The notes: a model not told the origin generated them from the letters alone. Shown: positions 13,830 through 35,078, counted from the stretch's first letter. The stretch is DNA of 64,000 nt from an uncultured Parcubacteria group bacterium (GCA_947084965.1 CAMTUG010000004.1:87490-151489); one strand, 5' to 3'. Numbers and translations are program-made.

Positions 13830-13858
13830 AATATAGCATATTTTAGCCCTTTTGTCAA
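13830..13858 (-). promoter_or_regulatory. Near-consensus sigma70 promoter for gene 12615..13718
   Basis: On the minus strand, TTGACA, then 17 nt (AAAGGGCTAAAATATGC), then TATATT; about 110 nt upstream of the start at 13718. Confidence 0.5.
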
Positions 13859-13912
13859 TGGTATAACGCTAGAATTAGCCTAAAAATAGGCAAAAACATA
13901 GTACTGGCCACG

Positions 13913-14695
13913 ATACCGGCTTCAGAAGCCGGTATCAGGAGGACATAAGTTAGAAACCGGAACAAAATCCAGGTACAATAAAAAAACTATGGCAATCACA
14001 AGGGACTTCAACTCGGGTAGCTATTACCACGTTTATAATCGAACCGTAGTTGGTACAAAACTTTTTAGATCATTTGCTGACCACCAACGTTTTTATGAAA
14101 ATCTTTACGTGTTTAACAATGCGAACTACCGTCATCGTGGTGGTGACCCAAGACGCGCCTACTATGAACTTGCAACTGCTGAAATTAACCGTGCACCCCT
14201 CGTTGAAATCGAATGTTTTATCCTCATGCCAGACCACTATCACTTAGTTCTCAAACAGCTACAAGAAAATGGCATATCGAAATTCATGCACCGACTAAGC
14301 ATGGGTTATGCAAACTATCTGAATCTAAAATATCAACGAACGGGACACGTTTTCGAAACAAAGTTCAAGGCGAGGCCGGTCGATGAACAGGAGCATTTCG
14401 ATCACTTACCACGTTATATTCATCTCAATGCCCTCGATCATAAATTGCCGGGCTGGAGAAATGGTTCGATCTCAGATTGGGCGCTGGCAAAAGCGATTCT
14501 CGATTCCTATCCATGGTCGAGTCATCATGTTTATTCAGGCTATGGACAGTCATTTGAAGTAATTAACGAGTCATTTGCTCGTGCTCGCTACCCTTCACCA
14601 AAGGACTACTTTACCGATCTACAAAACTGGTCAGGTCGATCAACCCTATCAAAACTTGATTCGTATTTCTGATACCGGCTTCTGAAGCCGGTATC
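13913..14695 (+). mobile_element. IS200/IS605-family (RAYT-like) transposase unit flanked by inverted REP-like palindromes
   Basis: ATACCGGCTTCaGAAGCCGGTAT at 13913-13935 and GATACCGGCTTCtGAAGCCGGTATC at 14671-14695. Both are perfect palindromes with complementary loop bases, i.e. inverted copies. Confidence 0.65.
13989..14672 (+). CDS. IS200-like / REP-associated tyrosine (Y1, HUH) transposase
   Basis: HUH motif MPDHYHLVL and C-terminal YIHLNALDH, which matches the IS200/RAYT YxHxNP(V/A) signature. It is low-GC in a high-GC neighbourhood. Confidence 0.75.
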   Translation: MAITRDFNSGSYYHVYNRTVVGTKLFRSFADHQRFYENLYVFNNANYRHRGGDPRRAYYELATAEINRAPLVEIECFILMPDHYHLVLKQLQENGISKFMHRLSMGYANYLNLKYQRTGHVFETKFKARPVDEQEHFDHLPRYIHLNALDHKLPGWRNGSISDWALAKAILDSYPWSSHHVYSGYGQSFEVINESFARARYPSPKDYFTDLQNWSGRSTLSKLDSYF

Positions 14696-14788
14696 ATCTT
14701 TTTAAACGCGAAGACGCCCACGGAAGTTGTCCGTGGGCGCCGCTCGGGGGCTCGAGTGTCGGCTCGAGCCGTTGTCGTGCCGGTGGGG

Positions 14789-17700
14789 CTAGATCCCCTG
14801 CCAGGCGTAGGTGGTCGCGGAGCTCTCGAAGATCTCCACGTCGCGGGTGTTGGCCGAGAAGACCGCGTTCAGCCAGCACTGCGGCGTCGTGCCCGTCGAG
14901 CCGTCGATCACGAAGAGGGAGAAGACCCCGTCCGTGATCGTGAAGCTGTAGGACCCGGTGCCGGTGTAGGGCAGGTACTGCATCGCCCCGCCGGCCGAGT
15001 AGTCGATGACCCCGATCTGGTCGCCCGAGGTGAGGGTCATCGCCGAGGTGCAGTCGATCAGCGAGCTCGGGTCATCCAGGCCGCCCGAGAGGGTGAGGAC
15101 CAGGAAGCCGCCGCTCGCGACACCGTCCACGGTGAAGAGGCAGGTCGCCTCGTCCACGACCCCGTCGCAGTCGTTGTCGACGCCGTCGTCGCAGGTTTCG
15201 GCCGCGTCGGGGTTGCTGAGCGCGAGACTGTCCTCGCAGTCGTCCCCGCCGCAGGCCTCGCTCACGAGGCCGTCGCCGTCCTCGTCGTCCTCGCAGGTCC
15301 CGGTGTCGCCGCCCGAGTCGCCGGTGTCGGAGGTCTCGCAGACCTCCTCGTCGACGTCACCGTCGCAGTCGTCGTCGAGGGTGTTGCAGTACTCCTCGGC
15401 GCCGGGGTAGCTGGTGCGCTGGTTGTCGTCGCAGTCGGTCGCGTCGGCGACGTAGCCGCTGGGCTGGTCGCAGGCCGCGGTGGCGGTGGCGGTCTCGTCG
15501 CCGAAGCCGTCGCCGTCGCCGTCCGGGTACCAGTCGCTGTCGTCGATCGCGTCGTCCTCGTCGACTTCGCCGTCGCAGTCGTCGTCCTGGCCGTTGCAGA
15601 ACTCGTCGGCGCCGGGGTAGCTGTCGTCGTCGCCGTCGTCGCAGTCCTCGCAGGCCGCGAAGCCGTCGAGGTCGGCGTCGTCGTACATCACCGAGCCGTC
15701 GCAGTTGTAGTCCGTGGGGTCGGTGCAGTCCGACTCGTCCGCGCCCGGGTTGTAGAGCGCGTCGCCGTCGTCGCAGTCGCCGCCGATCGCGACGTAGCCG
15801 CTCGGCGCGTCGCAGGCGATCTGGGTGACGCTGTCGTCACCGTACTCGTCGTCGTCCGCGTCCGCGTACCACGTCCCCGCGTCGATCGCGTCGTTCTCGT
15901 CGACGTCACCGTCGCAGTCGTCGTCGAGGCCGTTGCAGGTCTCGGTCGCGGCAGGACTCACGTCGACGTTGCCGTCGTCGCAGTCGCCGTCGTTCTCGGA
16001 GTACCCGTCGCCGTCCTCGTCGGAGGCGTCGGTCCCCTGGTCGACGTTGCCATCGCAGTCGTCGTCGAGGCCGTTCTCGATCTCCTCGGCGCCCGGGTAG
16101 GTCGTGCGCTGGTTGTCGTCGCAGTCGGTCGCGTCGGCGACGTAGCCGCTGGGCTGGTCGCAGGCCGCGGTGGCGGTGGCGGTCTCGTCGCCGAAGCCGT
16201 CGCCGTCGCCGTCCGGGTACCAGTCGCTGGCGTCCTCGTCGACCGTCCCGTCGCAGTCCCGGTCCACCCCGTCCTCGCAGTCCTGCGGGGCGTCGGGGTT
16301 GGTGCGGAACACGCTGTCGTCGCAGTCGCCGTCGTCCTCGGTCCAGCCGTCACCGTCGTCGTCGTAGGAGTCGGTGTTGTTGTCCACGACCCCGTCGCAG
16401 TCGTCGTCGGCGCCGTTGACGTACTCGGTCGCACCCGGGTGGGTGCTGCGGTCGAGGTCGGCGCAGTCGCCGTCGCACTCGGTGTAGCCGTCGCCGTCCG
16501 CGTCGACCATGTCGCCCGGGTCGCTGTCGTCGCAGTCGCTCCAGTCGTCGACGTAGCCGGTGGGCGCGTCGCACTCGATGTCCATGACGCTCGCGTCGCC
16601 GTAGCCGTCGCCGTCCGCGTCCGCGTACCAGGTCGAGGCGTCGATCGCCTCGTCCTCGTCGACGTCACCGTCGCAGTCGTCGTCGACCTCGTTGCAGGAC
16701 TCCGCCTCGGCGGGGCTCACCGAGGAGTCGAGGTCGTCGCAGTCGTCGTCGTTCTCGACGTAGCCGGTGGGGAGCGAGCAGGCGGCGTGGGTGTTGCCCG
16801 CGTCGCCGTAGCTGTCCCGATCGAGGTCCGCGTACCAGGTCGAGGCGTCGATCGCCTCGTCCTCGTCGACGTCACCGTCGCAGTCGTTGTCGATCGTGTC
16901 GCAGATCTCGCTGTCGGCGGGCGAGATCGCGGCGTCGTCGTCGTCGCAGTCGTTGGCGTCGGCGACGTAGCCGCTCGGCTGGTTGCAGGCGTAGTCGATC
17001 GCGTCCTCGTTGCCGAAGCCGTCGCCGTCCGCGTCCGCGTACCAGGTCGAGGCGTCGATCGCCTCGTCCTCGTCGACCGTGCCGTCGCAGTTGTCGTCGA
17101 CCTCGTTGCAGGTCTCGAGCTCGCCCGGGTTGACGCTCGCGTCGGTGTCGTCGCAGTCGGTGGCGTCGACGACGTACCCCGCGGGGATGGTGCAGGAGGT
17201 GAGCGCGTTGTCCACGTCGCCGTAGCCGTCGCCGTCCACGTCGCCGAAGAAGTCGATCGCGTCCACCGCGTCGTCCTCGTCCACGATCGCGTCGCAGTCG
17301 TCGTCCACGCCGTTGCAGGACTCGGACTGGCCGACGAAGATCTCGGCGTCGAGGTCGTAGCAGTCGCGGCTGTCGGTCACGTAGCCGTCCGGCTGGCTGC
17401 AGGCCTCGACGGGCGCGTTCAGGTCGCCCTGGCCGTCGCCGTCGAGGTCGGCGTAGAAGGTCGAGGTCACGCCCTCGTCGACCGTGCCGTTGCAGTTGTC
17501 GTCGCGGTCGTTGCAGGCCTCGGTCGCGCCGGGGTTGACGTCGGCGTCCCCGTCGTCGCAGTCGCTGTCGTCGGCGACGTAGTGGCTCGGCGCCACGCAG
17601 TCGTCGATCGCGTCCGCGGAGTCGCCGTAGCCGTCCTGGTCGAGGTCGGCGTACCAGGTCCCGAGGGCGTTCTCGTCGACCGTGCCGTTGCAGTTGTCGT

Positions 17701-17977
17701 CGCGGTCGTTGCAGGCCTCGGTCGCGCCGGGGTTGACGTCGGCGTCCCCGTCGTCGCAGTCGCCGTCGTTCTCCGAGTACCCGTCGCCGTCGTTGTCGAC
17801 CTCGTCGGGATCCGGCTGGTCGATGTTGACGCCGGTGTCGTTGATCGGGTCCTGGAACCCGATCGTCTCGCAGCCGGCGAGGGTGAGGGTGATGAGCAGC
17901 CCGCCGATCTTGGCGCGGGTGCTCGAGGAGGCGGCCTTGCGGACGCCGGACTTCTTGGTGAGACGGAACAGGTTCAT
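14789..17977 (-). CDS. High-GC lipoprotein built from about 20 MopE-like (putative metal-binding, PF11617-type) Cys/Asp-rich modules
   Basis: Signal peptide plus lipobox (LITLTLAGCET). Tandem modules DCDDxDAxVNPGAxExCNxxDDNCDGxVDE(D)xAIDAxTWYADADGDGYG. The minus strand has recognisable motifs; plus-strand frames are V/A/G/R low complexity. Confidence 0.7.
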   Translation of the reverse strand: MNLFRLTKKSGVRKAASSSTRAKIGGLLITLTLAGCETIGFQDPINDTGVNIDQPDPDEVDNDGDGYSENDGDCDDGDADVNPGATEACNDRDDNCNGTVDENALGTWYADLDQDGYGDSADAIDDCVAPSHYVADDSDCDDGDADVNPGATEACNDRDDNCNGTVDEGVTSTFYADLDGDGQGDLNAPVEACSQPDGYVTDSRDCYDLDAEIFVGQSESCNGVDDDCDAIVDEDDAVDAIDFFGDVDGDGYGDVDNALTSCTIPAGYVVDATDCDDTDASVNPGELETCNEVDDNCDGTVDEDEAIDASTWYADADGDGFGNEDAIDYACNQPSGYVADANDCDDDDAAISPADSEICDTIDNDCDGDVDEDEAIDASTWYADLDRDSYGDAGNTHAACSLPTGYVENDDDCDDLDSSVSPAEAESCNEVDDDCDGDVDEDEAIDASTWYADADGDGYGDASVMDIECDAPTGYVDDWSDCDDSDPGDMVDADGDGYTECDGDCADLDRSTHPGATEYVNGADDDCDGVVDNNTDSYDDDGDGWTEDDGDCDDSVFRTNPDAPQDCEDGVDRDCDGTVDEDASDWYPDGDGDGFGDETATATAACDQPSGYVADATDCDDNQRTTYPGAEEIENGLDDDCDGNVDQGTDASDEDGDGYSENDGDCDDGNVDVSPAATETCNGLDDDCDGDVDENDAIDAGTWYADADDDEYGDDSVTQIACDAPSGYVAIGGDCDDGDALYNPGADESDCTDPTDYNCDGSVMYDDADLDGFAACEDCDDGDDDSYPGADEFCNGQDDDCDGEVDEDDAIDDSDWYPDGDGDGFGDETATATAACDQPSGYVADATDCDDNQRTSYPGAEEYCNTLDDDCDGDVDEEVCETSDTGDSGGDTGTCEDDEDGDGLVSEACGGDDCEDSLALSNPDAAETCDDGVDNDCDGVVDEATCLFTVDGVASGGFLVLTLSGGLDDPSSLIDCTSAMTLTSGDQIGVIDYSAGGAMQYLPYTGTGSYSFTITDGVFSLFVIDGSTGTTPQCWLNAVFSANTRDVEIFESSATTYAWQGI

Positions 17978-18138
17978 CCTGTCCTCCTGTGGTTGGGGGT
18001 CTACTTCTCTCGGACACTTCTCCGTCGTCAGGCCGACGGAGCACTAGAACACAAAAAGAGCTACGCGTTGCGTTTCCGCCTGATCCCCTCCCCATCAGTC
18101 GAAAACGACGCTAAAAATAGGCAAAATCACGGCCTGTG

Positions 18139-18167
18139 TTTTTATCACTTTTGCCCAAGAATGTCAA
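18139..18167 (-). promoter_or_regulatory. Candidate sigma70 promoter for gene 14789..17977
   Basis: On the minus strand, TTGACA, then 17 nt, then TAAAAA (weak -10 with TGA upstream); about 165 nt upstream of the start at 17977. Confidence 0.35.
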
Positions 18168-18369
18168 GAAATCGCTAACGAAATCTTTAAAAGTCGATGC
18201 GGTGTCGGTGCGTGGGGTGCCAGCCTCTGAGACGTACCCAAAATGTATGGCGAAGAAGTGGCAGGGACCCGCAAACCGGCAGATCGCAAATTCTGTACGT
18301 TTTAAAAAGCGTGATGCCCTCGGGAGTGTCCCAAGGGCATCAGAGCGTCGATCTACCCGGCCCGGTTGA

Positions 18370-20727
18370 TCAGTAGGCCTCGCGCAGCGAGAACTGGTCG
18401 AAGAGGTAGTCGCCGGATTCGAATCCGAGGCAGAGCGTATGATCCGCCTCGGTGGCGGTGAAGATCCAGGCGTACTCCTGCCAGGACGTCGTGGCGGCCG
18501 CCATCGTGTCGTCGTAGTCCCCGTCGCTCGCGCTCGGGGTGAGGTCGACAGTCGAACCGATCGAGCTCGTCTCGATCCAGGCGACTCCGAAGGAGAGCGA
18601 GGAGGCCGTCGTCGTCCGGTAGACGAAGGCGATCTCGTAGTCGACCCCGACCGTGAAGCCGGAGAACTCGGTGCAGACCCCGGCCTGGTACCAGTCCGAC
18701 GAGGTCGCCACGCTGACCTCCATGAAGTAGTCGTGGGACCCGACCGACGTGGTGTACACGTACGACGAGCTCTCCGAGTACCCGAGAGTGATGGCGTAGC
18801 TGCCCCAGGCGGTCCTGACCGCGGCCCAAACCGAACTGGGATCGCTGTCGATCGCCCCGTCCGTGAAGAAGCTCGAGCCCGTCGCCACGTAGCCCGTCCC
18901 GCTGACGCAGACCGTGGTGTCCTCGAAGTCCCAGAGGCCGTTGCAGTCGTTGTCGACCAGGTCGTAGCACTCGTGACCAGTTCCCCAGTCGTCCTCGGCG
19001 GTGTGAGCCGGGGACGCGGCCGCGGTGGTGTCGTCGCAGTCGCCGCCGGTCGTGACGTACCCCGAGAGGGTCGAACACGTGGTGGTGCCGGTGGACGAAT
19101 CGCCGTAGCCGTCGCCGTCCTCGTCGAGGTAGTAGGTGGTGCCCGCCCCCTCGTCGATCGTCCCGTCGCAGTCCTCGTCCATCCCGTCGCAGTTCTCGGT
19201 CGCGCCAGGGTAGACCCCGCTCGCGGCGTCGTTGCAGTCGCCGGCGTCCTCGGTGTAGCCGTCGCTGTCGTCGTCGTAGCAGGACGTCGTCTCATCGATC
19301 GTCCCGTCGCAGTCCTCGTCCACGCCGTCGCAGGACTCGCTCGCGCCGGGGCTCACGTCGGCGTCGCTGTCGTTGCAGTCACCGCCGGTTTCGGTGTACC
19401 CGTCGCCGTCGTCGTCGTAGAGCGAGGTCCCCTCGTCGACGATCCCGTCGCAGTCGTCGTCCACCAGGTTGGCGGACTCGGTGCCGCTCGGGTTGACCGT
19501 CGCATCGCTGTCGTCGCAGTCATCGTCGTTCTCGACGTAGCCGGCGGGGAGCGCGCAGGCGGCGAGCGTGCTGTCCGGGTCGCCGTAGCTGTCGCCGTCG
19601 TAGTCGCGGTAGTAGACGTTGGCCGTGAGGCCGTCGTCCACCGTCCCGTCGCAGTCGTCGTCCACGCCGTTGCAGGACTCGGTCGCCGAGGTGTTGACCG
19701 CCGCGTCGCCGTCGTTGCAGTCGCCGGCGCAGGTGGTCTCCCCGTCGCCGTCGCTGTCGACATCTTCGTCGATCGTGCCGTCGCAGTCCTCGTCGATCGT
19801 GCCGTCGCAGACTTCGCTCGCGCCGGGGTTGACCGCCGCGTCGCCGTCGTCGCAGTCCGACTCGCAGACCATGTACCCGTCGCGGTCGTCGTCCGCCTCG
19901 TCGCTTCCGGCGCTGCCATCGCAGTCGTCGTCCACGCCGTTGCAGGACTCGGTCGCGTCCGGGTTGACCGCCGCGTCGCCGTCGTTGCAGTCGTCGGCGT
20001 TGTCGGCGTAGCCGGTCGGCAGGTCGCAGGCCTCGGCCGGGACGAGCTCGTTGCCGAACCCATCGCCGTCCGCGTCCTCGTACCAGGTCGGCATGTCCAC
20101 GGCGTCCTCGTCGACCTCCCCGTCGCAGTCGTTGTCGACGTCGTCGCAGAGCTCATCGAGGTCGGGGGCGGCGGCGACGTTGCCGTCGTCGCAGTCCCCG
20201 GCGCAGGTCGTCCAGCCGTCGCCGTCCGCGTCCACGTCCTCGTTGATCTCCCCGTCGCAGTCGTTGTCGATCTCGTCCTCGCAGCTCTCCTCGAGTCCGG
20301 GGCTCGCGGTCGACAGGGCGTCGTCGCAGTCCCCGTCGCACTCGGTGTAGCCGTCGCTGTCGTCGTCGACCATGTCGCCGGCCGTGGTGTCGTCGCAGTC
20401 GCCCGCGACGGCCACGAAGCTGGTCGGCTGGTCGCAGGCGATCTCGGTGGTGGCTTCGTCGCCGTAGCCATCGCCGTCCGCGTCCGCGTACCAGGTCGGC
20501 ATGTCGATGGCGTCCTCGTCGATCTCGCCGTCGCAGTCGTCGTCGAGGTCGTTGCAGACCTCGTCGGTCGGGACGCAGCCGGAATCGGTGTCGGTGTCCG
20601 TGTCCGTATCGGTGTCCGTATCGGTGTCCGTGTCCGTGTCGGTGTCGGCGTCACCCGAATCACCAACGATGGTAGACTTGCCGAGGGTCAGCTCAGCGAG
20701 GCAGGCCATGAGGGTCAGTAGCAACAT
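18370..20727 (-). CDS. High-GC MopE-like Cys/Asp-rich modular lipoprotein with an N-terminal (Thr-Asp)n linker and a C-terminal beta-rich domain
   Basis: Start taken at the internal ATG giving MLLLTLMACLAELTL (signal peptide). A (DT)12 tract is followed by about 12 MopE-like modules. Confidence 0.65.
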   Translation of the reverse strand: MLLLTLMACLAELTLGKSTIVGDSGDADTDTDTDTDTDTDTDTDTDTDSGCVPTDEVCNDLDDDCDGEIDEDAIDMPTWYADADGDGYGDEATTEIACDQPTSFVAVAGDCDDTTAGDMVDDDSDGYTECDGDCDDALSTASPGLEESCEDEIDNDCDGEINEDVDADGDGWTTCAGDCDDGNVAAAPDLDELCDDVDNDCDGEVDEDAVDMPTWYEDADGDGFGNELVPAEACDLPTGYADNADDCNDGDAAVNPDATESCNGVDDDCDGSAGSDEADDDRDGYMVCESDCDDGDAAVNPGASEVCDGTIDEDCDGTIDEDVDSDGDGETTCAGDCNDGDAAVNTSATESCNGVDDDCDGTVDDGLTANVYYRDYDGDSYGDPDSTLAACALPAGYVENDDDCDDSDATVNPSGTESANLVDDDCDGIVDEGTSLYDDDGDGYTETGGDCNDSDADVSPGASESCDGVDEDCDGTIDETTSCYDDDSDGYTEDAGDCNDAASGVYPGATENCDGMDEDCDGTIDEGAGTTYYLDEDGDGYGDSSTGTTTCSTLSGYVTTGGDCDDTTAAASPAHTAEDDWGTGHECYDLVDNDCNGLWDFEDTTVCVSGTGYVATGSSFFTDGAIDSDPSSVWAAVRTAWGSYAITLGYSESSSYVYTTSVGSHDYFMEVSVATSSDWYQAGVCTEFSGFTVGVDYEIAFVYRTTTASSLSFGVAWIETSSIGSTVDLTPSASDGDYDDTMAAATTSWQEYAWIFTATEADHTLCLGFESGDYLFDQFSLREAY
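20575..20650. repeat. In-frame hexanucleotide microsatellite (GTGTCS/GTATCG)n encoding (Thr-Asp)n
   Basis: About 12 tandem 6-mers, seen directly in the sequence. Confidence 0.8.
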
Positions 20728-20926
20728 GTGGGGCTCCGTGCTGGGGTCAGGGTGTATCCTTACAAGCACCGCGAACTTGCGGGCTTCTGAATGCACATAA
20801 AAAGTGTTCAGTCAGAAATCCACAAATTCACCACACGATCCACTAAAGTGCGACCATTATAATTATCACAGAAAAATGAACTTGTCCAGTAGCTGCGGGC
20901 CCAATAAATAGCTCAATAAAGCACAG

Positions 20927-20975
20927 CACCCCCTCGGAGAGCTTCTCCGCGGGGGTGTCAGACGTAGTTCACGGC
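20927..20975 (-). terminator. Rho-independent terminator for gene 21024..21812
   Basis: On the minus strand, CACCCCC-GCGGAGAAGCTCTCCGAG-GGGGTG followed by CTGTGCTTTATTGAGCTATTTATTG. Confidence 0.5.
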
Positions 20976-21023
20976 CGGCACCCACGCTTCGAAGTCTTCG
21001 AAGGGATGCCGGGCCGGGCAGGG

Positions 21024-21812
<789 letters not shown>

Positions 21813-21956
21813 GGGGGTCTCCTTGGCGCTTGGGGGTTGGCCTTGTCAGGGCCGGGAACAGAACGCAATCCTTCATCGGTTGACGGCCGATATACCGATC
21901 CTGATCCTTTGGGTTTGAACCAGGACAGGCGGGAAGCTCTTTGGAAAGTCGTAATT

Positions 21957-22017
21957 GGTAAGTGGCAAGGAGAGACGCTCGTGTCTCCGCTTTCCACTTA
22001 CTGCTTACCACTTTCTA
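21957..22017. repeat. GTAAGTGG-family palindromic hairpin element, copy A (empty loop)
   Basis: GGTAAGTGGCAAGGAGAGACGCTCGTGTCTCCGCTTTCCACTTACTGCTTACCAC with central stem GAGAC/GTCTC; about 170 nt 3' of gene 22184..23638. Confidence 0.55.
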
Positions 22018-22183
22018 CAGAACTTTCCACCGTCCTAATTCTTGGATCGGTCGCAGGCCAAAGCCTGCAGCTACCACGATCTTGTAAAGGACACTCTGAG
22101 GGCACCATACCATGATGATGATCTCGGAGTGTCGTTGCTGAGGAGTGGCCCCAGCAACGATCACGGTGAGTCCCCCGACTCCT

Positions 22184-25806: not shown

Positions 25807-25811
25807 CTCAT

Positions 25812-26843: not shown

Positions 26844-26844
26844 A

Positions 26845-27609: not shown

Positions 27610-27618
27610 GAATGGACG

Positions 27619-28320
27619 TTACTCTTCGACGATCAACGTTCCCTGAATCACCAGCGATCCTTCAGAAAGTTCGACCGCGGTCAGTTGGGCATACGGTCTG
27701 ATCGCTTCGTTAAACGGCGCCGTCGCTTGAGTGATCACGGCCTGCAGCGACCAGGTGAACAACCAGCGTGGAAGCGGAAGGGATCCGACAGAAAGACGCG
27801 TCAGTTTGAATTGAAGCCCTCCTTCTTCAATCACGGGTTTTACCGCGATCGTCACACCAGCGGCCGGGGCATCTTGCACGAGGGGGAGATAAAATTCAAC
27901 TTCACTCCCGGCAATCACCGCCACCTGCGTCTGTTCGATGTCGACGATCGTGGCCCCTGTTTTTTCGATCATCTGACGGGCAGACGCAGTCAATGACGAC
28001 TCTTCTAGGGTCAGGGTGATGGCGTCCGTGCGCCGGGCGATCTGCGCGCTGATCTGGGAGGGAACGGTTTCTTCAACGGGCACGCCGGCCGCCACAAGAT
28101 GATCCGGCGTATCGGCTCGATGAATCGCTAAAAAAAGAAAGATCGCCGCGCTGCACAGGAGCGTGAGGCTCACTCCCCAAAAAATCACTTTGCGTCGAAG
28201 CGCGGCACCGAATCTGGTGCTCGGGGTGTCCGAACTCGATGGCCGTGCGGCTTTTGGATCAGCGATCAATTCGATCCGTGCCATAAACTGATTATTCAAT
28301 CCAAGAGTACTGATCGACAA
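27619..28320 (-). CDS. Membrane-anchored hypothetical protein
   Basis: Single TM (VIFWGVSLTLLCSAAIFLFLAI) followed by a soluble domain. Confidence 0.35.
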   Translation of the reverse strand: MSISTLGLNNQFMARIELIADPKAARPSSSDTPSTRFGAALRRKVIFWGVSLTLLCSAAIFLFLAIHRADTPDHLVAAGVPVEETVPSQISAQIARRTDAITLTLEESSLTASARQMIEKTGATIVDIEQTQVAVIAGSEVEFYLPLVQDAPAAGVTIAVKPVIEEGGLQFKLTRLSVGSLPLPRWLFTWSLQAVITQATAPFNEAIRPYAQLTAVELSEGSLVIQGTLIVEE

Positions 28321-28714
28321 GCGTCTGCCAACGCGCTTCGGCCCCTTCCGTTCCGTTCATCCAGTCGGTGAGCAGAATCACCAGATCAAGATGAAGATCT
28401 TTATATTCAGACGGGACGTGCAGTTGAAGTAACGCTTCGCGCGCTTTGGAAAGAATCTCACTCTTCCCTTCTGACGCCGATTCAGCGGCGATGCGTGTTC
28501 GCACATCTCCAAGGATCGCGTGAGCGTTGGCTTGATACTCAACGGAGGTGACGGCCGACGGAACGGTCGGTTCGAGCGTGGCGCGATCTTTAAAAATGGA
28601 AAAAATAGCACCGGCAAGGATGAGGGTCAGCACGCCGACGAGGATCGGGAAATATGTTTTGTGATGAAGCATAACGTTAAGTCTTTTCTTGATTGCGAAT
28701 GACGTCGTACACAA
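28292..28714 (-). CDS. Small membrane-anchored hypothetical protein
   Basis: N-terminal TM (YFPILVGVLTLILAGAIFSIF); translationally coupled to its neighbours. Confidence 0.35.
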   Translation of the reverse strand: MCTTSFAIKKRLNVMLHHKTYFPILVGVLTLILAGAIFSIFKDRATLEPTVPSAVTSVEYQANAHAILGDVRTRIAAESASEGKSEILSKAREALLQLHVPSEYKDLHLDLVILLTDWMNGTEGAEARWQTLVDQYSWIE

Positions 28715-29711
28715 AGACGCTGGTCATAGTAGCGACAGGGATAGCGAGCGCAGCCCCGGCGATCCCGCCGAGTTTGAAGCCGATCAACAAGGCGACGATC
28801 GACACGATCGGATTTAATCCGGTCACCTTCTGCATCACCTTCGGAATTAAAATGTGATTCTCCACTTGCTGAATGATGATGTACAGGAGCAAAACCATCA
28901 CCGCTTTCACCGGCGATTCACCAAAGGCGATGACGATCGCGGGGATCGCCGAAAGCGTTGGACCGGCGTACGGAATCACTTCGAGCAAGCCGGCAAGTAG
29001 GGCGAGGACGAGGGCATACGGCACACCGAGGATAGTGAGACCGAGATAGGCACAGACAGCGATGACGATCATCAACAGCAACTGTCCGCGCAGCCACTGA
29101 CCGATCTTTTCCTGCATCTTGTTAAACAACTGGGTGAGGTATGGCTGATATTCGTCCGGGGAAAGGCGGCGGAAGATGCGCTTCCAAGCATCTTCTTCAA
29201 CGACAATATAAAACGCCAGAACGAGGACGATGAAAAAGGCGGCAACGCCCCCGATGATCCCGGTGACCGTAGCGAACAGCCCTGTAAGGAGCGAGCCCGC
29301 CTGTTCACGGAGCTGATCGATCGAAGCGTTGATACTTTCTTGGATGCCGTACTGTTCACCAAAAGCGATCAGACGATTGACCTGTTCAGAAACATTGCCT
29401 GCTGCCCCAGAAAAATTATTCAGCAGTTCATGAAACTGCGAAACGAACGGCGGGATGATCAAAATGAGACTGGTGGAGAGGATCGAGAACAGGATGACGT
29501 AAATAGTGATCACTCCCAGGGGGCGCGGGATTTTTCGGCGATGCAACCAACTAACGGCCGGCTCAATCAGTGCCGAGAGCATCAGGGCGAGCAGGAGCAT
29601 GATGACGATCTCTTTGATGTACCACAAAAAGCCGACAGCAAGGGCGATCACCAGGACACGAAAGATCGTGCCGGTCGAGATACTGATCGATTGTGGAATA
29701 GCGCGCGGCAT
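28677..29711 (-). CDS. AI-2E family transporter (PerM/UPF0118)
   Basis: 344 aa with about 8 TM segments and the family-typical length and loop pattern. Confidence 0.65.
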   Translation of the reverse strand: MPRAIPQSISISTGTIFRVLVIALAVGFLWYIKEIVIMLLLALMLSALIEPAVSWLHRRKIPRPLGVITIYVILFSILSTSLILIIPPFVSQFHELLNNFSGAAGNVSEQVNRLIAFGEQYGIQESINASIDQLREQAGSLLTGLFATVTGIIGGVAAFFIVLVLAFYIVVEEDAWKRIFRRLSPDEYQPYLTQLFNKMQEKIGQWLRGQLLLMIVIAVCAYLGLTILGVPYALVLALLAGLLEVIPYAGPTLSAIPAIVIAFGESPVKAVMVLLLYIIIQQVENHILIPKVMQKVTGLNPIVSIVALLIGFKLGGIAGAALAIPVATMTSVFVYDVIRNQEKT

Positions 29712-29787
29712 ACGTCGCCAATTTTAGCATATTCCCCCCATATCCTCCACTTACCACTTACTGCTTACCGCTTTCTTTCCCAGTTCC

Positions 29788-29816
29788 TTGACATTTTTGC
29801 CAAATTTTGCTATATT
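29788..29816 (+). promoter_or_regulatory. Consensus sigma70 promoter for the high-GC gene at 29960
   Basis: TTGACA, then 17 nt (TTTTTGCCAAATTTTGC), then TATATT. A GGAGGA Shine-Dalgarno lies 7 nt before the ATG at 29960. Confidence 0.55.
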
Positions 29817-29959
29817 CTTCAGTCGGTTTTCCCTGCGTCTTGGCGCTCCCGCGCACAATTCGCTTCGATTTCCATTCCCCCCGCCGCCTGGACCGACACA
29901 GGTGGTTCCGTTCGAGACCCAAGGCCCCCGTGGGCCACTTCCCGTCCCTGGAGGACACC

Positions 29960-30646
29960 ATGCCGACCGCAACCCCCCACCCCGCGTGGGTTCTCGCCGC
30001 ACAGCTGTGTGGCATCGCCCCCGACACCGCCGACGAGGTGGAGAAGGGCCAGATCGAGGCGGCGCTCGCCGATCTCAAGGCCGCCTTCGCGACCCGCATG
30101 CCGATCATCCCGACCGCCGAGGACATCAAGGAGATCGCCCGCGAGGAGGCCGAGCACGTCATGCCGGTGATCCCCGAGCGCGGACTCGTGGATCGCTGGG
30201 CCGGCACGTTCGCGGTCCTCGGGCTGATCCTCGGCCTCGCCGGCACGATCGGCGCCGCCGCGGTCGCGTGGAAGTCGACGATGGACGAGCGGGAGCTGTG
30301 GCTCCGCGTCGCGACGGAGAGCTACGCGACCCAGTACCAACTCCCCGGCCGCATCGCCGCGGTCGAGGGCGCGATCGCCACGCTCCAGGCGGCCCAGCCC
30401 ACCCCGGCCCCCGCCGCCCCGCCGCCCCCGGCCACCACCACCGACCCCGCCGCCCCCGCCCAGCCCACCGCCGCCGCCATGGACGACGCCAACATCTCGG
30501 CGAAGTGCAACAACATCGTGGCGCTCGGCGGCACCGATGGCTACCGGCTCGACCAGTGCGCCGACAGCCAGACCTACGTCTGCCGCGCCTACGACCAGCC
30601 GCGGGGGCAGGTCTCGGAGTGTGCCCTCGCGAGCACGGTCCCCTAG
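29960..30646 (+). CDS. High-GC membrane protein of unknown function (Pro/Ala-rich linker, Cys-containing C-terminal domain)
   Basis: Start moved from the track's 29807 to the ATG at 29960, because 29807 lies inside the promoter. TM segment FAVLGLILGLAGTIGAAAVAW. Confidence 0.5.
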   Translation: MPTATPHPAWVLAAQLCGIAPDTADEVEKGQIEAALADLKAAFATRMPIIPTAEDIKEIAREEAEHVMPVIPERGLVDRWAGTFAVLGLILGLAGTIGAAAVAWKSTMDERELWLRVATESYATQYQLPGRIAAVEGAIATLQAAQPTPAPAAPPPPATTTDPAAPAQPTAAAMDDANISAKCNNIVALGGTDGYRLDQCADSQTYVCRAYDQPRGQVSECALASTVP

Positions 30647-30672
30647 GACCTGCCACACCGATGGGCAGGTCC
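30647..30672 (+). terminator. Hairpin 3' of gene 29960..30646
   Basis: GGACCTGCC-CACACCGAT-GGCAGGTCC with no clear T-tract. Confidence 0.3.
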
Positions 30673-30734
30673 GCGACCCTGCCTATCTCTCGACTCCCTT
30701 CAGCACTACGGCTGGAGGGATTCGTGTTTATTGG

Positions 30735-30862
30735 AAGGAAAATTCGAAATACGAATGTCGAAATTCGAAATAAAAGGAAATACAAAAAAGTAAAAGTTTC
30801 CAAATTTCCCATTTCCGGTTAGGATTTGTTTCGTGCTTCGTATTTCGGATTTCGTATTTATA
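30735..30862. repeat. Heptamer-repeat inverted-arm hairpin (GAAATWC family), no gene in the loop, immediately 5' of smpB
   Basis: Left arm AAATTCGAAATACGAATGTCGAAATTCGAAAT; right arm CTTCGTATTTCGGATTTCGTATTTATAC. Confidence 0.4.
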
Positions 30863-30867
30863 CCTCC

Positions 30868-31311
30868 ATGCCAACGCTCGCTACCAACAAACGCGCACGA
30901 TTTGACTACGACGTCCTCGAAGAATTTGAGGCCGGGATTAAGTTATCTGGCGGCGAAGTAAAATCGGCCAAAGGCGGGCATGTGCAGCTCGATCGGGCAC
31001 ATATTTCCCTGCGCGGCACGGACGCCTATTTAGTCGGCGCCCATATTTCCTATTATAAACCGAGCGGCCCGCAAACGGACTATGACCCAGAACGCCCTCG
31101 TCGACTTCTTCTCCACAAAAAAGAACTCAACCGATTATTGGGGAAATCAAAGGAAGGCGGATTGACAATTATCCCAATTTCGCTCTATACTAAGGGCGAT
31201 TTGGTAAAAGTTTCCGTAGCTTTAGCCAAGGGAAAAAAGAAATTCGAAAAACGGGAAACGATCAAAAACCGCGAAGTGGATCGCGAGATCCGCCGCGCCA
31301 AACTTGAGTAA
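30868..31311 (+). CDS. smpB: SsrA-binding protein SmpB
   Basis: MPTLATNKRARFDYDVLEEFEAGIKLSGGEVKS matches the SmpB N-terminus. The start is moved to the internal ATG. Confidence 0.9.
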   Translation: MPTLATNKRARFDYDVLEEFEAGIKLSGGEVKSAKGGHVQLDRAHISLRGTDAYLVGAHISYYKPSGPQTDYDPERPRRLLLHKKELNRLLGKSKEGGLTIIPISLYTKGDLVKVSVALAKGKKKFEKRETIKNREVDREIRRAKLE

Positions 31312-31444
31312 TGACGAATGCTTTGAAAAACTCGAGATGCAAGGCGTGGGACAGCGAGCTCTGAGACGTAGGTAAATCCTACGTTGAGGAGCGAGCAGGG
31401 ACCCACAACACAGCAGATCGAGGAATTTCAAAGCATGAGTTTAT

Positions 31445-31826
31445 GGGGGTGTCGGGTATCGACGGGAGTTCATTTTCATGTGAGCAAGCCGAGGACGTAC
31501 GCTACCTCGTAAATACTGCGTGCAACGTAGATAACTGCCAATCTCATCACGAAACTTAGGAACGCGTATAGCGCTCCTGCGTTCGTACCAGCGTTCGCCT
31601 AAGGGCGAACCTGCACTTCCTCCACGATGCTCGATAGTGGATACGAAGTGTTATATATCGAGCTCGGGATTATCTCTTTCGATCGGATAATCTCTAAAGG
31701 CTAGATCGGAACCTTCTGGCGTCTTTTGTTCCGCCTTATTCGTCAGAAGTATTCAGCGGAACTACGCTTGTAGAAACACGTGGGGATTGCTTTCGCACAG
31801 GAGTTCAACTCTCCTCACCTCCACCA
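31445..31826 (+). ncRNA. ssrA: tmRNA (ssrA), one-piece
   Basis: The 5' end GGGGGTGTCGGGTATCGACGGG and the 3' end GGAGTTCAACTCTCCTCACCTCCACCA (T-arm plus acceptor) pair into an acceptor stem. It lies directly downstream of smpB. A candidate tag ORF ends ...AYSAPAFVPAFA-stop. Confidence 0.8.
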
Positions 31827-31889
31827 GTTCATATAACAGACTTTGCTTCGCACGTCTGTCAATCCGGTCAATCCATAAGAAACATTACA

Positions 31890-32441
31890 ATGCGCATTCA
31901 TCGTCACCGAAATCGTGCTCCGAAATTCGAAGCACCAACGTACCGCGTCAACGAACAGATCACCAACGAGACCGTTCGCGTGATCGACGAAGAGGGAGCT
32001 CCCCTTGGCGTCATCAAAACAACGGACGCTCTTGAACGTGCCCGCGAAGCAGGATTTGATCTCGTTGAAGTTTCCCCAAAGGCAGAACCGCCGGTCTGCA
32101 AATTCCTCGAGTACGGGGTTTTTAAATATCAAAAGGAAAAGGAAGCGCGTAAAGCCAAGGCTCAATCAAAGGAGGTGGAGATCAAAGGGATCCGCCTTTC
32201 TCTGCGCATCGGCGTTGGCGATTTGGAGACCCGCAAGAACCAGGCGCTCGGGTTTATGGAGCGCGGGGATAAGGTCAAAATCGAAATTGTGCTCCGTGGC
32301 CGTGAAAAAGCCCACGTCGATGTGGCCAAGGAAGTCATGACCAATTTTATGGAGTCCCTCAAAGCCACCTACCCCCTCCGGATTGAACAGCCGTTCCAGG
32401 CTCAAGCCGGCAGGTTGACAATGATAGTCGCTAGAGTGTAG
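31890..32441 (+). CDS. infC: Translation initiation factor IF-3
   Basis: RVNEQITNETVRVIDEEGAPLGV...FDLVEVSPKAEPPVCKFLEYGVFKYQ matches IF-3. An upstream non-ATG start is possible. Confidence 0.85.
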   Translation: MRIHRHRNRAPKFEAPTYRVNEQITNETVRVIDEEGAPLGVIKTTDALERAREAGFDLVEVSPKAEPPVCKFLEYGVFKYQKEKEARKAKAQSKEVEIKGIRLSLRIGVGDLETRKNQALGFMERGDKVKIEIVLRGREKAHVDVAKEVMTNFMESLKATYPLRIEQPFQAQAGRLTMIVARV

Positions 32442-32496
32442 GATGCGGCGGCATAGGAAAAGGTTAGAGGAAAGAGGAAAAAGTGAAGGAAATTGT

Positions 32497-32682
32497 ATGA
32501 ACAAAACGTATAAAGCACTGGCAAAACGGGTCACCGTGACCAAAACAGGCAAGGTGATCAAACGCAAAGCTGGCCAGGACCATTTTAATTCCCGCGAGAC
32601 CGGCAAGGAACGCCGCAATAAGCGCTCGGATATGGGCGTTTCCAAGCCGATCAACAAGCTCGTCGTGGATAATCTTCAATAA
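32497..32682 (+). CDS. rpmI: 50S ribosomal protein L35
   Basis: MNKTYKALAKRVTVTKTGKVIKRKAGQDHFNSRE. Confidence 0.8.
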   Translation: MNKTYKALAKRVTVTKTGKVIKRKAGQDHFNSRETGKERRNKRSDMGVSKPINKLVVDNLQ

Positions 32683-32684
32683 GT

Positions 32685-33029
32685 ATGCCACGAGTTAAAC
32701 GAGGCGTCATGCACGCCAAAACGCGCCGCAACTTGTTAGCCAAAGTGAAGGGCTACAAGCCAGGTCGCCGCAACAAGATCAAGCAGGCCCGTGTCGCCTT
32801 CTTGAAAGCCGGTGTCAACGCCTACACCTCGCGCAAGTTGAAAAAGCGCGTCAACCGCGGACTCCAGAACATCCGCATCAACGCCGCCGCTCGCGAAAAT
32901 GGCACGATCTACAGCCGCCTGATCGACGCCATGAAGAAAGCGAATATCGAGCTTGATCGCAAAGTGTTAGCCCAGATCGCCGCGGCACACCCAGCCGTCT
33001 TCTCGAAGATCGTCGCCGCGACCAAATAA
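32685..33029 (+). CDS. rplT: 50S ribosomal protein L20
   Basis: MPRVKRGVMHAKTRRNLLAKVKGYKPGRRN; conserved infC-rpmI-rplT gene order. Confidence 0.9.
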   Translation: MPRVKRGVMHAKTRRNLLAKVKGYKPGRRNKIKQARVAFLKAGVNAYTSRKLKKRVNRGLQNIRINAAARENGTIYSRLIDAMKKANIELDRKVLAQIAAAHPAVFSKIVAATK

Positions 33030-33039
33030 AAGAAAATTG

Positions 33040-33085
33040 ATGAGCCCCGCGGAAGTTCTCCGCGGGGCTCTTCTTGTTGTTGTCG
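33040..33085 (+). terminator. Rho-independent terminator of the infC-rpmI-rplT operon
   Basis: GAGCCCCGCGGA-AGTTC-TCCGCGGGGCTC followed by TTCTTGTTGTTGT. Confidence 0.6.
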
Positions 33086-33094
33086 ATCGCTCGT

Positions 33095-33880
33095 TCAGCG
33101 ACCGACCGATCCGCCCGGTCGCCCCTCTCCACCACTTCCCTTGCAGAGCTGAGGTGCGTCCGACTTGGTCGTGCACATGTACTCGACCGCAGCGCAGAGA
33201 CGCCCCGGATCCTGATCCTCGGCCGCGTCGACCAGGTAGGCCTTGCCACCAGGGAAGGTGTAGATCTTCATTCCGGCGTTGACCATCTTGCCACCGGGGT
33301 CGCCACCCTGGGCCTGGTTGCATTCCTTGAGCGCCTTCTCCGCCTTCTTGGCCTGGCGCTGGGACTCTTCGGCCTGGCGCTCGGCCTTGGCCGCATCGGC
33401 CTGAGCTGCCGCGAGTTCTGCGGACATCTTGATGATCTGCTGGCGCAGCTCCTTGGAGCTCGCCTGGCACTCCTTCAGCTCCTTGCGGAGCTTGGGGGCT
33501 TCGGCCAGCGCTTCGATGTCGCCGTCGGACAGATCCTGATTGGCGAGCTCGGTCATCGCCGCCAGGGTCTGGGCGGCCTTCTGCTTGGCTGCGGCCTCCA
33601 GCCGTGCGAGCTCTGCCCGCTTCTGCTTGCTGGCGGCCAGATCGGTCTCCGCCAGCTGCCGCGCCTCCATCTCGACCTTCAGTGCCTGCGCCTTGGCCTC
33701 GAGCTCGACCTCCTTCTCCTTGAGGTCAGCGAACGAAGTGGCGATGATGAGCATCAGCACCCGAATGATCGCCACCTGCCCGAGAACGACGACCAAGAGG
33801 GCGATGTTGAAGCCCGAGAGGATGTCGGACTGCGAGTCGCTCGGGCTGGAGTGAACCCGCTCGTCGAATTCTTCGCTCAC
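33095..33880 (-). CDS. High-GC MotB/ExbD/TolR-like single-TM protein with a long coiled coil and a Cys-containing C-terminal domain (no peptidoglycan-binding domain)
   Basis: TM SDILSGFNIALLVVVLGQV has an Asp at the cytoplasmic end, as in MotB (ADFMTAMMAFFLV), followed by about 150 aa of coiled coil. Its start overlaps (ATGA) the stop of the upstream MotA-like gene. Confidence 0.4.
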   Translation of the reverse strand: MSEEFDERVHSSPSDSQSDILSGFNIALLVVVLGQVAIIRVLMLIIATSFADLKEKEVELEAKAQALKVEMEARQLAETDLAASKQKRAELARLEAAAKQKAAQTLAAMTELANQDLSDGDIEALAEAPKLRKELKECQASSKELRQQIIKMSAELAAAQADAAKAERQAEESQRQAKKAEKALKECNQAQGGDPGGKMVNAGMKIYTFPGGKAYLVDAAEDQDPGRLCAAVEYMCTTKSDAPQLCKGSGGEGRPGGSVGR

Positions 33881-34974
33881 TTGGCACCTCCCTTCTCGCC
33901 CGTCTTGATCTCGAGCACGTAGCCGCCTTCGACCAGCTTCATCTTCAGCGTTCCGCCGTCGAGCCCGCCGATCAGCTCGGCCAGGCGCTCGAAGCGCGGC
34001 CCGAAGACCTCGGTCATCGTGCGCATGATCGCCGCGTTGGCGCGACCGGCGCTCCGCAGCTCGCCCGCGACATCGGCGATCTTCTCGGTCGCTTCGATCA
34101 GCGGCTTGGCCAACTCGTTGTTGGCGGCGAGCGTCAGGTAGGTTGACACCTGGCTCGGCAGGTGCAGCTTGGCCATGATCTCGTCCTGGATCCAGGACTC
34201 GACCTCGGTCAGCGAATCCATCTCCGCGCTCTTGCGGTCGTCGATGAACCGCCCGAGCCAGGCCTTGGCCCCCCAGCCGATGAGGGAGGTGATGAAGGCG
34301 GTCATGACCGTGTACAGGTCGATCGTCGAGGAGTTGGCCGAGAGCTCGGTGAAGAGCTGGAAGGCGTCGAAGCTCTCCTTGGTGATCGTCGGCATCTTGA
34401 AGAGGCCGACCGCCTGCGCCAGGAAGGTCATGAAGCCGATGATCGTACCGATCGCGCCCTCGAACGAGAGCGTCTCGACCTCGGCCTTGATCGTGCCGAA
34501 GCGTTGAGCGACCTTGCGGCGCTCGATCGTCATCTTGGCATCGACGAACTTCTGGATCGACCCTTCGTCCGCGGCGTTGGTGATCTTGGTCAGCAGCGCC
34601 GCGATCAGCCCGTGGACGAGCACCGCCCCGCCGTTCTTGCGCGGGTCGGGGTCGATCAGATCAGGGATGTGCTCGCGGTCGATCACCGGCGTGGTGCCGT
34701 AGAACTTCGGCGGGGCAAAGACCCGGGACTTGGGGATCCGCCAGACGATGTAGCCGAAGAGCTTGAACACCATGTAGATCGTGAAGACCCAGGCCATGGT
34801 GTTGAACGCTCCGGACGCCGTCGCGAAGTAGGAGTAGCCGACGACACCCGACACGCCGGTCAGGGCGATGCCGAACAGGGACCAGATCATGCGAACCTCG
34901 GGGGTGGAGAGATGATGAGACGAAACGATCTGCGGGTTGTCCCGCCGCTTTTGTGCCCGAATACTCGGTCGCAA
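33877..34974 (-). CDS. High-GC MotA/TolQ/ExbB-family proton-channel protein (4 TM)
   Basis: 2 TM, then a cytoplasmic loop, then 2 TM. TM3 reads AIGTIIGFMTFL, matching the family motif LGLLGTV(I/W)G(I/M)xxAF. Confidence 0.5.
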   Translation of the reverse strand: MRPSIRAQKRRDNPQIVSSHHLSTPEVRMIWSLFGIALTGVSGVVGYSYFATASGAFNTMAWVFTIYMVFKLFGYIVWRIPKSRVFAPPKFYGTTPVIDREHIPDLIDPDPRKNGGAVLVHGLIAALLTKITNAADEGSIQKFVDAKMTIERRKVAQRFGTIKAEVETLSFEGAIGTIIGFMTFLAQAVGLFKMPTITKESFDAFQLFTELSANSSTIDLYTVMTAFITSLIGWGAKAWLGRFIDDRKSAEMDSLTEVESWIQDEIMAKLHLPSQVSTYLTLAANNELAKPLIEATEKIADVAGELRSAGRANAAIMRTMTEVFGPRFERLAELIGGLDGGTLKMKLVEGGYVLEIKTGEKGGAK

Positions 34975-34995
34975 AGGCAGAGAGGCAAACGGCAG

Positions 34996-35024
34996 AAATT
35001 ACCAGGGATTTCCATTTCTGTCAA
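34996..35024 (-). promoter_or_regulatory. Consensus-like sigma70 promoter for the MotA-like operon
   Basis: On the minus strand, TTGACA, then 17 nt (GAAATGGAAATCCCTGG), then TAATTT. Confidence 0.45.
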
Positions 35025-35049
35025 TGAAGGGATCCTCAACCTATTTCCC

Positions 35050-35078
35050 TTGACTTTTTCACTAAAGCTAGATATCTT
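35050..35078 (+). promoter_or_regulatory. Divergent sigma70-like promoter for gene 35145..36941
   Basis: TTGACT, then 17 nt (TTTTCACTAAAGCTAGA), then TATCTT. Confidence 0.45.

Follow-up and report, generated by a model that had tools for sequence, protein, structure and literature searches.

Probable near-consensus sigma70-type promoters with a fixed candidate start motif ahead of GC-saturated exported-protein genes in an Uhrbacteria genome segment

Stable mRNAs of abundant envelope proteins classically combine a hairpin at the very 5' end, a long leader and a terminator. Further upstream, a four-part spacer and a TG ahead of the -10 box characterise strong bacterial promoters in general (Kuo et al., NAR 2025, PMC12641261). 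A literature search returned one general promoter paper on promoters of the Candidate Phyla Radiation (CPR, or Patescibacteria) and nothing on heterogeneity of codon use or of GC content at third codon positions (GC3) in Uhrbacteria or Patescibacteria. The subject here is a 64,000-nucleotide stretch of DNA from an uncultured Parcubacteria group bacterium (GCA_947084965.1, CAMTUG010000004.1:87490-151489), called the window, and six sites in it, P1 to P6, that match or approach TTGACA-N17-TATATT. A sequence-only reading had listed these sites in front of high-GC genes, with a 17-bp spacer in all; each was found in its place when the sequence was read again, as were two perfect copies (P1 and P4), where 0.09 would be expected. 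The six sites are quite probably native to a Candidatus Uhrbacteria bacterium and serve as promoters for its RNA polymerase with the primary sigma factor (sigma70/sigmaA type), and their likeness is best read as convergence on the optimum of one enzyme rather than copying.

Downstream of every site, at 61-431 nt, a gene start lies in the same orientation, and P5 and P6 are divergent, with 26 bp between their -35 boxes (Table 1). The -35 box reads TTGACA in five of the six and TTGACT in the other, and the -10 box fits TAnnnT in five. The TG before the -10 takes the form TGC at P1, P3 and P4, TGG at P5 and TGA at P2, and is absent at P6. Five of the six follow a stricter architecture that combines an A/T-GC-A/T spacer, a TGn extended -10 and a fixed G-T-Y-C, which is weakly visible also at 18167 (P2) and at 20888. 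Chance does not yield such an array: TTGACA-17-TAnnnT occurs six times in the window against 0.13 expected, and TTGACA with spacers of 16-18 and TAnnnT eight times against 0.68. The bare hexamer TTGACA is scarce, with 17 copies where about 29 would be expected, and 11 of these fall in the 17% of the window that is non-coding. Depletion joined to such concentration is the signature of a motif read by the cell's own polymerase, and the scarcity suggests selection against spurious promoters within genes. The same hexamers and spacing also precede a normal-GC unit at 4638-4666 (+), and the rpmI-rplT promoter is kept as TTGACN-17-TAnACT in about 30 related loci; 80 related loci, all around infC, serve for comparison. 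Since the same hexamers stand ahead of rpmI-rplT and other normal-GC units, the hexamer architecture is the lineage's general sigma70-type consensus.

A subclass of this consensus emerges when upstream regions are first scored with a generic matrix for sigma70 derived from E. coli and strong sites are then aligned. Strong sigma70-like sites lie upstream of 59-61% of high-GC3 genes and of 22% of normal genes with an upstream gap, with 5-13% on the antisense strand. When 35 promoters of high-GC3 genes from other species are aligned, an A/T tract after the -35, a G/C patch and a T tract appear; the TG before the -10 carries 1.3-1.4 bits, and G, T, C and C at 6-9 nt after the -10 carry 1.5, 1.4, 0.9 and 0.9 bits. 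No such conservation beyond the hexamers is seen in 112 promoters of normal genes. A second matrix, class A, was trained solely on other Uhrbacteria; under it P1, P4, P3, P6 and P5 are the top five of 127,922 window positions, and Markov-simulated sequence gave no hit of at least 14 bits. The subclass is found across Uhrbacteria and in other groundwater metagenome contigs, and what it adds is the fixed G-T-Y-C 6-9 nt after the -10. The promoters themselves are of a known kind; that fixed start and the tie to GC-saturated exported-protein genes are a new variation on it.

The genes behind the sites stand apart in composition. Ten envelope-protein genes in the window have GC3 values of 0.84-0.98, against 0.4-0.7 for other window genes; they were called by codon-position GC rules, and their products are TSP3, MopE and Asp-Thr repeat lipoproteins, secreted or membrane orphans and a POT transporter. 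Third positions are C in 0.62, G in 0.32, A in 0.025 and T in 0.038 of cases; AAG, AAC, TAC and TTC each reach a usage of 99%, and Lys, Glu and Gln take G-ending codons in 89-99%. Five of the genes form a run, and the second five lie among the normal-GC smpB, tmRNA, infC, rpmI, rplT and 37036-37920. Shifts in GC coincide with the edges of genes, and a native promoter and terminator stand on either side. Where related loci have a backbone GC3 below 0.70, about 10% of their genes likewise form a second mode at GC3 0.8-0.98; these mostly encode proteins with a signal peptide or lipobox and occupy the same syntenic slots, after a Wzz-like gene and after rplT. As a class, high-GC3 genes more often carry a lipobox (22% vs 2%) and encode secreted-like proteins (45% vs 24%), and Asp, Gly, Ala, Thr, Pro and Cys abound in their products.

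Promoter subclass and composition go together. At strong generic sites, TG and GT occur jointly before 81% of genes with GC3 of at least 0.85, 42% of those with intermediate excess and 12% of those near background; in relatives, TG alone marks 84% of strong sites before high-GC3 genes vs 23% before background genes. Median excess GC3 is +0.31 behind sites with both TG and GT (n=68) vs 0.00 behind sites with neither (n=99; p=1.7e-17). An independent sample came from scanning metagenome contigs for the bare DNA pattern TTGACA-N9-TTTT-N-TG-N-TANNNT-N5-GTYC. The 80 loci returned carry the subclass features even where the pattern left positions free, and the genes downstream, many of them for signal-peptide proteins or lipoproteins, show a median excess of +0.12 (46% at or above +0.15 and 3% at or below -0.15; p=1e-5). 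Together, these observations show that the tie between promoter and GC3 is real and clade-wide. The enrichment also reaches untranslated leaders (GC 0.55 vs 0.45, p=5e-8), and GC declines from 0.66 to 0.47 across the 3' flanks; the excess spans the transcribed unit, is weaker in the leader and 3' flank, and ends at the AT-rich promoter.

Table 1. Promoter sites, high-GC3 genes and associated features of the window. Scores are in bits under the class-A matrix, with ranks among all window positions scored; in the text, genes are often called by their first coordinate.
Feature	Coordinates	Strand	Sequence or composition	Downstream gene or relation	Leader (nt)	Score (rank)
P1	13820-13858	-	TTGACA 13858-13853, 17-nt spacer ending TGC, TATATT 13835-13830, N5, GTTC 13824-13821	TSP3-repeat lipoprotein gene 12615-13718	~106	34.9 (1)
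P2	18130-18167	-	TTGACA-17-TAAAAA (18167-18139), TGA before -10, GCCG instead of GTYC	MopE-repeat lipoprotein gene 14789-17977	~156	4.9 (12)
P3	24065-24103	-	TTGACA-17(..TGC)-TATTCT-N5-GTTC; -35 to -10 at 24103-24075	secreted orphan gene 22184-23638; probably also drives 21024-21812	431	27.0 (3)
P4	29788-29826	+	TTGACA-17(..TGC)-TATATT-N5-GTCG; -35 to -10 at 29788-29816	29960-30646, exported, proline/alanine-rich; start from independent gene call in L001	~138	33.1 (2)
P5	34986-35024	-	TTGACA-17(..TGG)-TAATTT-N5-GTTT; -35 to -10 at 35024-34996	bicistron 33877-34890 and 33095-33880, membrane proteins	~100	14.0 (5)
P6	35050-35088	+	TTGACT-17-TATCTT-N5-GTCC, no TG; -35 to -10 at 35050-35078	35145-36941, proline-rich protein with C-terminal anchor	61	16.6 (4)
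Degenerate site, outside the six	20850-20888	-	TGGACA-17(..TGA)-TAATTA-N5-GTCG	probable promoter of MopE lipoprotein gene 18370-20796		4.6
Weak promoter-like site	39492-39520	-	TTGACT-17-TTAAAT	upstream of POT transporter 38051-39391/39472		-13.4
Ordinary sigma70-type promoter	32415-32444	+	TTGACA-18-TAGGAT	upstream of rpmI-rplT		
Intrinsic terminator	18312-18342	-		closes the 18370-20796 unit, just upstream of P2		
Similar hairpin with T-run	20942-20928	-		closes another unit		
Similar hairpin with T-run	30695-30720	+		closes another unit		
Similar hairpin with T-run	~36957-36999	+		closes another unit		
19-mer, first copy	13880-13898	+	CTAAAAATAGGCAAAAACA	22 nt upstream of P1 -35		
19-mer, second copy	18111-18129		CTAAAAATAGGCAAAATCA	+5 to +23 of predicted P2 transcript		
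Run of five high-GC3 genes	12615-23638	-	GC3 0.94-0.98; all with lipobox or signal peptide	run broken by IS200-like element		
Member of run	12615-13718	-	TSP3			
Member of run	14789-17977	-	13 MopE repeats			
Member of run	18370-20796	-	8 MopE repeats			
Member of run	21024-21812	-	Asp-Thr repeat			
Member of run	22184-23638	-				
High-GC3 gene, second five	29960-30646	+	GC3 0.84-0.93 across the five			
High-GC3 gene, second five	33095-33880	-				
High-GC3 gene, second five	33877-34890	-				
High-GC3 gene, second five	35145-36941	+				
High-GC3 gene, second five	38051-39472	-				

The conserved bases beyond the -10 point to the start of the transcript. Under the proposed mechanism, transcription would begin at the G or T of the motif after the -10; the RNA would often open with a short terminal hairpin, would bear a 60-430-nt leader with a Shine-Dalgarno sequence, and would cover one or two genes up to an intrinsic terminator. 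The units encode exported or envelope proteins, namely MopE/TSP3 lipoproteins, secreted orphans and membrane proteins. A start there would be consistent with the conserved G and T at +6/+7 after the -10, and the constant spacing between the -10 and GTYC suggests that the motif takes part in start-site choice. In RNA starting at that G, nt 1-4 are predicted to pair within the first 40 nt with a mean probability of 0.58; the probability peaks at that offset, is 0.1-0.38 elsewhere, and drops to 0.40 when the tail is shuffled (p=3e-5). Among the window leaders, a terminal hairpin from nt 1 is predicted for P1, P3 (stem GUUCGCU/GGCGAAU) and P6, none for P2 or P4, and at P5 one that begins only at nt 7. 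Two genes have no site of their own, 21024-21812 and 33095-33880, and look co-transcribed with the gene upstream; 33877 and 33095 overlap by 4 nt, and the pair is conserved in relatives. An Rfam scan of the window returned tmRNA alone above threshold, so the leaders fit no known RNA family. Initiation, promoter strength and mRNA stabilisation are all predicted here from sequence. The promoters, ordinary in themselves, offer a first view, at sequence level, of a strong promoter in a CPR lineage that has neither a cultured member nor mapped starts.

Several observations weigh against reading the six sites as one native promoter subclass coupled to GC3. P2 is the weakest of the six, with a poor -10 that lacks the usually invariant final T and with no GTYC, and P6 has no TG. 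A promoter of this type had been claimed for every high-GC unit; six of the eight units have one, but those of 18370-20796 and the POT transporter have degenerate sites only, which makes the coupling statistical, not absolute. L206, a relative of 33877, has a subclass-like promoter and no GC3 excess. All 80 related loci surround infC, and some of their promoters may be orthologous, which ungapped flank clustering could miss; the 80 metagenome loci were picked by DNA pattern only, their taxonomy not established. The 5' hairpin is found in only about half of the leaders, and the fold energies of the six window leaders, taken one by one, are in no case significantly better than those of shuffles. 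Finally, the excess GC3 of rplT is only +0.02, so that high expression, if these units have it, would not by itself explain their GC3.

Could the genes be foreign? The sequence-only reading had proposed promoter capture or domestication. As spelled out here, the idea is that genes were imported from bacteria of at least 70% GC (such as Myxococcota, in which MopE repeats are common) and that each one later gained a native promoter or was inserted behind one. The codon usage is like that of a genome of at least 70% GC, GC1 and GC2 of the window genes (0.64, 0.485) fit the clade regression for a high-GC genome, a fit that is the same under either reading, and the GC excess extends into leaders and 3' flanks. 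The POT transporter has thousands of matches at about 60% identity in diverse non-CPR bacteria (the best at 57-63%, none close), and an element of the IS200 insertion sequence (IS) type sits among the genes. On this record the POT transporter has the look of an acquired gene, and capture is possible for it. The other genes tell a different story. No homologue of 22184-23638 was found among 5.8 billion proteins, and 12615-13718 matches other proteins solely over short TSP3 repeats. An exhaustive profile-free search gave the 33877-34890 family 19 cluster representatives, which are distant relatives, and a protein scan of metagenome contigs with 33877 gave no relatives. Wherever the contig extends, the relatives of 33877 are paired with a homologue of 33095, and the contigs with informative neighbours look CPR-like.

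Composition within families argues in the same direction. GC3 in the 33877 family takes the values 0.50, 0.72, 0.88, 0.92 and 0.94, with neighbours, where the contig has any, at 0.6-0.76, and this spread argues that GC3 excess evolves in place. A secreted-protein family with eight orthologues lies above its own backbone in every species. The specific high-GC3 proteins of the window are absent from the 80 related loci, where other high-GC3 exported genes fill those slots; in dozens of species with backbone GC of 0.44-0.56, those slots are taken by exported-protein genes whose GC3 is just as extreme. High-GC Uhrbacteria were considered as the source of both gene and promoter and rejected: their strong promoters mostly lack the features (TG 24%, GT 10%), and their GC3 of about 0.8-0.89 is lower than that of the window genes, which reaches 0.98. 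It is also implausible that a near-perfect multi-part promoter evolved several times before foreign codons were lost. With orphans, CPR-only families, the range of GC3 within a family, filled syntenic slots and unrelated flanks all on record, capture or domestication of foreign genes is not supported, and for most units a recent import followed by promoter capture appears unlikely. Compositional islands are usually read as imports, and that reading would be wrong for most genes tested here.

The backbone into which these genes are set places the window in Candidatus Uhrbacteria (CPR/Patescibacteria): infC is 54-70% identical to its matches, mostly named Candidatus Uhrbacteria or Patescibacteria metagenome-assembled genomes (MAGs), and the backbone gene order is conserved among them. 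Backbone GC is about 52%, and smpB, tmRNA (31445-31826), infC, rpmI and rplT are all present. The window proteins found by database look-up are each a singleton at 90% identity. Many MAGs titled 'uncultured Gammaproteobacteria bacterium' (L003, L009, L011-L013 and others) hold an Uhrbacteria-type smpB-infC-rplT locus at about 60-67% identity, and those titles look like placeholder or wrong taxonomy.

A different question is whether the units form a true regulon, in which GTYC or the hairpin would bind a dedicated regulator, or would mark an alternative sigma factor or initiation factor, that turns the surface-protein genes on and off as a set. The motif keeps a fixed distance from the -10, carries as much as 1.5 bits at a position and marks a single functional gene class, and P5 and P6, back to back, could share a control region. 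However, the -35 and -10 boxes are the same as those of the housekeeping rpmI-rplT promoter, implying the same sigma factor, and a typical regulator site needs more than four bases. The alignments show no conserved operator, whether extended or palindromic, and no regulator gene is linked to the units in the window. The placement of GTYC is also what would be expected of a sequence for start-site selection (compare the 'start element' of PMC12641261) and of a terminal hairpin's 5' strand. A true regulon is on these grounds improbable. Of the dedicated, highly expressed surface-protein regulon that had been suggested, the tie of the subclass to exported-protein genes across Uhrbacteria stands, and no shared regulator is shown.

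Copying of a mobile promoter cassette in front of each gene would also make the sites alike. Small palindromic elements and the IS200-like element are present, a half palindrome lies 13 nt upstream of P4 (29745-29775), and P3 and P4 have 22 of 29 spacer positions in common by the count made in this analysis. Outside the core, however, the six regions are dissimilar, the palindromes are not consistently near promoters, and spacer composition follows the general strong-promoter pattern. As the four-part spacer is general among strong promoters, the window spacers can be alike without shared ancestry. Clustering the flanks of 68 subclass promoters gave 64 clusters, in which the scored window promoters P1, P4 and P5 are singletons, and in an alignment of the six sites conservation is confined to the core. 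Unrelated flanks and core-only conservation argue that the six sites are not copies of one element, and a cassette is very improbable.

Chance, an assembly chimera or engineered DNA, suggested by abrupt GC shifts and promoters unusually near the textbook consensus, is barely credible against six sites for 0.13 expected, GC shifts that track gene boundaries, the same architecture in many MAGs and metagenome contigs from different studies, and an independent Logan assembly of run ERR3478686 that is 100% identical across 21890-36745 and spans several junctions of high and normal GC; the same environmental assemblies, many and independent, and the identity over that interval lead us to reject the constructed arrangement that had been raised.

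What, then, raises GC3 in these units? A generic codon bias of highly expressed genes was considered and rejected on the small excess of rplT (+0.02 only), the G-ending Lys, Glu and Gln codons and the GC-enriched leaders, and ordinary translational selection is an unlikely cause. An excess that covers the transcribed unit fits selection on the mRNA, and also a transcription-linked process of mutation or conversion. A tentative proposal, which we would rate as possible and no higher, is that two codon dialects coexist in the very small genomes of Uhrbacteria, and probably of further CPR bacteria from groundwater. A minority of self-contained exported-protein units would pair the subclass promoter, with its full -35, extended -10, fixed GTYC start and 5' hairpin, with codons that nearly all end in G or C, under a GC-raising force that acts per transcription unit. 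The GC excess would, on the same tentative footing, cover the whole unit including the leader, arise and decay within resident families, and leave rplT aside. If true, this model would call for selection on mRNA (stability or structure), or for mutation or gene conversion tied to promoter class, and not for translational selection or import.

Extreme GC3 in lineage-specific, fast-evolving envelope genes that can be predicted from a promoter motif would have several consequences if this coupling holds. The motif would be a marker for probable major surface proteins of uncultured Uhrbacteria, candidates for host attachment. Composition-based detection of transfer, and the binning of CPR genomes, would need caution. 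The contrast within one genome, with neighbours as controls, would bear on why bacterial GC varies (selection, biased gene conversion, mutation).

Other features of the window touch on these subjects. The sequence-only reading had also noted a 19-mer near two of the sites. It exists, one base from where it had been placed, in two (+)-strand copies that are 18/19 identical and take the form CTAAAAATAGGCAAAA(A/T)CA; a single 18/19 repeat in 64 kb is about chance level (about 0.9 expected by the arithmetic of this analysis). The 19-mer was sought in the 80 related loci and is absent from them. As a promoter or shared element it was rejected, with no -35 or -10 boxes in either orientation, different placement at P1 and P2, and no copy in relatives. 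Its core, AAATAGGCAAAA, is similar to a promoter spacer in the relative L081 (position 4222, minus strand), and the 19-mer may be a promoter relic.

Repeats and small elements are plentiful. The IS200/IS605-like element (Y1/REP-associated type) occupies 13912-14695, between P1 and the 3' end of the MopE gene, with tnpA at 13989-14672 (+); the transposase gene is bracketed by two perfect copies of a 27-nt hairpin (13912-13938 and 14669-14695), and the element sits between two units and does not bracket them. A hairpin akin to the IS ends (TTACCGGCTTCAGGAGCCGGTA) directly follows the 4638 promoter, at 4680-4701. Two '23S rRNA intervening-sequence' four-helix-bundle genes (24267-24718 and 25372-25807) each lie between 36-37-nt inverted repeats in a cassette-like arrangement. 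Palindromes of that family without an open reading frame occur at 23810-23897, an 88-nt element within the P3 leader, and at 21931-22018, between 22184 and 21024, and the half palindrome near P4 belongs to the same family; these palindromes may be RNase III-type processing or stabilising elements in mRNAs. Imperfect inverted repeats span 12428-12541 (50-nt arms, across the start of an O-antigen-ligase-like gene) and 24103-24191 (40-nt arms), and the latter, immediately upstream of the P3 -35, may terminate the upstream gene. Arrays of the (GACACC)n type at 20580-20650 and 21500-21690 (-) encode the Asp-Thr repeats near the N-termini of 18370-20796 and 21024-21812, and could vary in length by slippage.

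Among the remaining genes, a TTGACA-18-TATACT at 31162-31191 (+) lies in the 3' end of smpB, about 250 nt upstream of tmRNA, and may be the tmRNA promoter, giving a long precursor; the tag peptide is ANLITKLRNAYSAPAFVPAFA. No tRNA genes were found in the window. Glycosyltransferases are present, and a restriction/defence cluster at 41695-61129 comprises a ParB-domain DNA methylase, a DUF2779 protein, a GmrSD-type endonuclease (GC3 0.82) and a type I restriction-modification system (HsdR 54450-57503, HsdM 58649-60208). Several genes of this cluster have intermediate GC3 (0.70-0.82) and are without a subclass promoter.

How do these units compare with described systems? Like horizontally acquired islands, they show sharp compositional contrast, accessory and fast-evolving surface genes, an IS nearby and a POT transporter with mainly non-CPR relatives. 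Unlike such islands, they have no donors that could be found, consist of orphans or CPR-only families and vary in GC3 within a family. Many species have these slots filled, a lineage-typical promoter precedes each gene, and single genes are scattered between smpB, infC and rplT, with no block beside a tRNA or integrase gene.

The leaders recall 5' stem-loop stabilisers such as the E. coli ompA 5' untranslated region, the B. subtilis aprE leader and S-layer leaders. The untranslated leaders are long here too, at 60-430 nt, and surface or exported products come from self-contained units with a terminator; in about half of the cases a hairpin is predicted to start no more than 1-2 nt from the 5' end. 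In contrast to those systems, stabilisation is here a prediction, the hairpin signal is modest (0.58 vs 0.40) and is missing at P2 and P4, and sequence is conserved over the first four bases, where stabiliser hairpins need no fixed sequence.

The closest match is to extended -10 (TGnTATAAT) promoters of sigma70/sigmaA, with which the sites share TTGACA, a 17-bp spacer, TAnnnT, a TG (five of the six sites) and a sequence preference at the start site. As in the strong promoters of PMC12641261, the spacer runs from an A/T tract through a slight G/C patch and a second A/T tract to a G-rich end. In place of the general Y-R-Y 'start element' described there, the motif seen here is G-T-Y-C, at a constant 6-9 nt past the -10 box. 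Here the TG accompanies a full -35, whereas elsewhere it often compensates for a weak one, and unlike the usual extended -10 promoters the motif is confined to one gene class within the genome.

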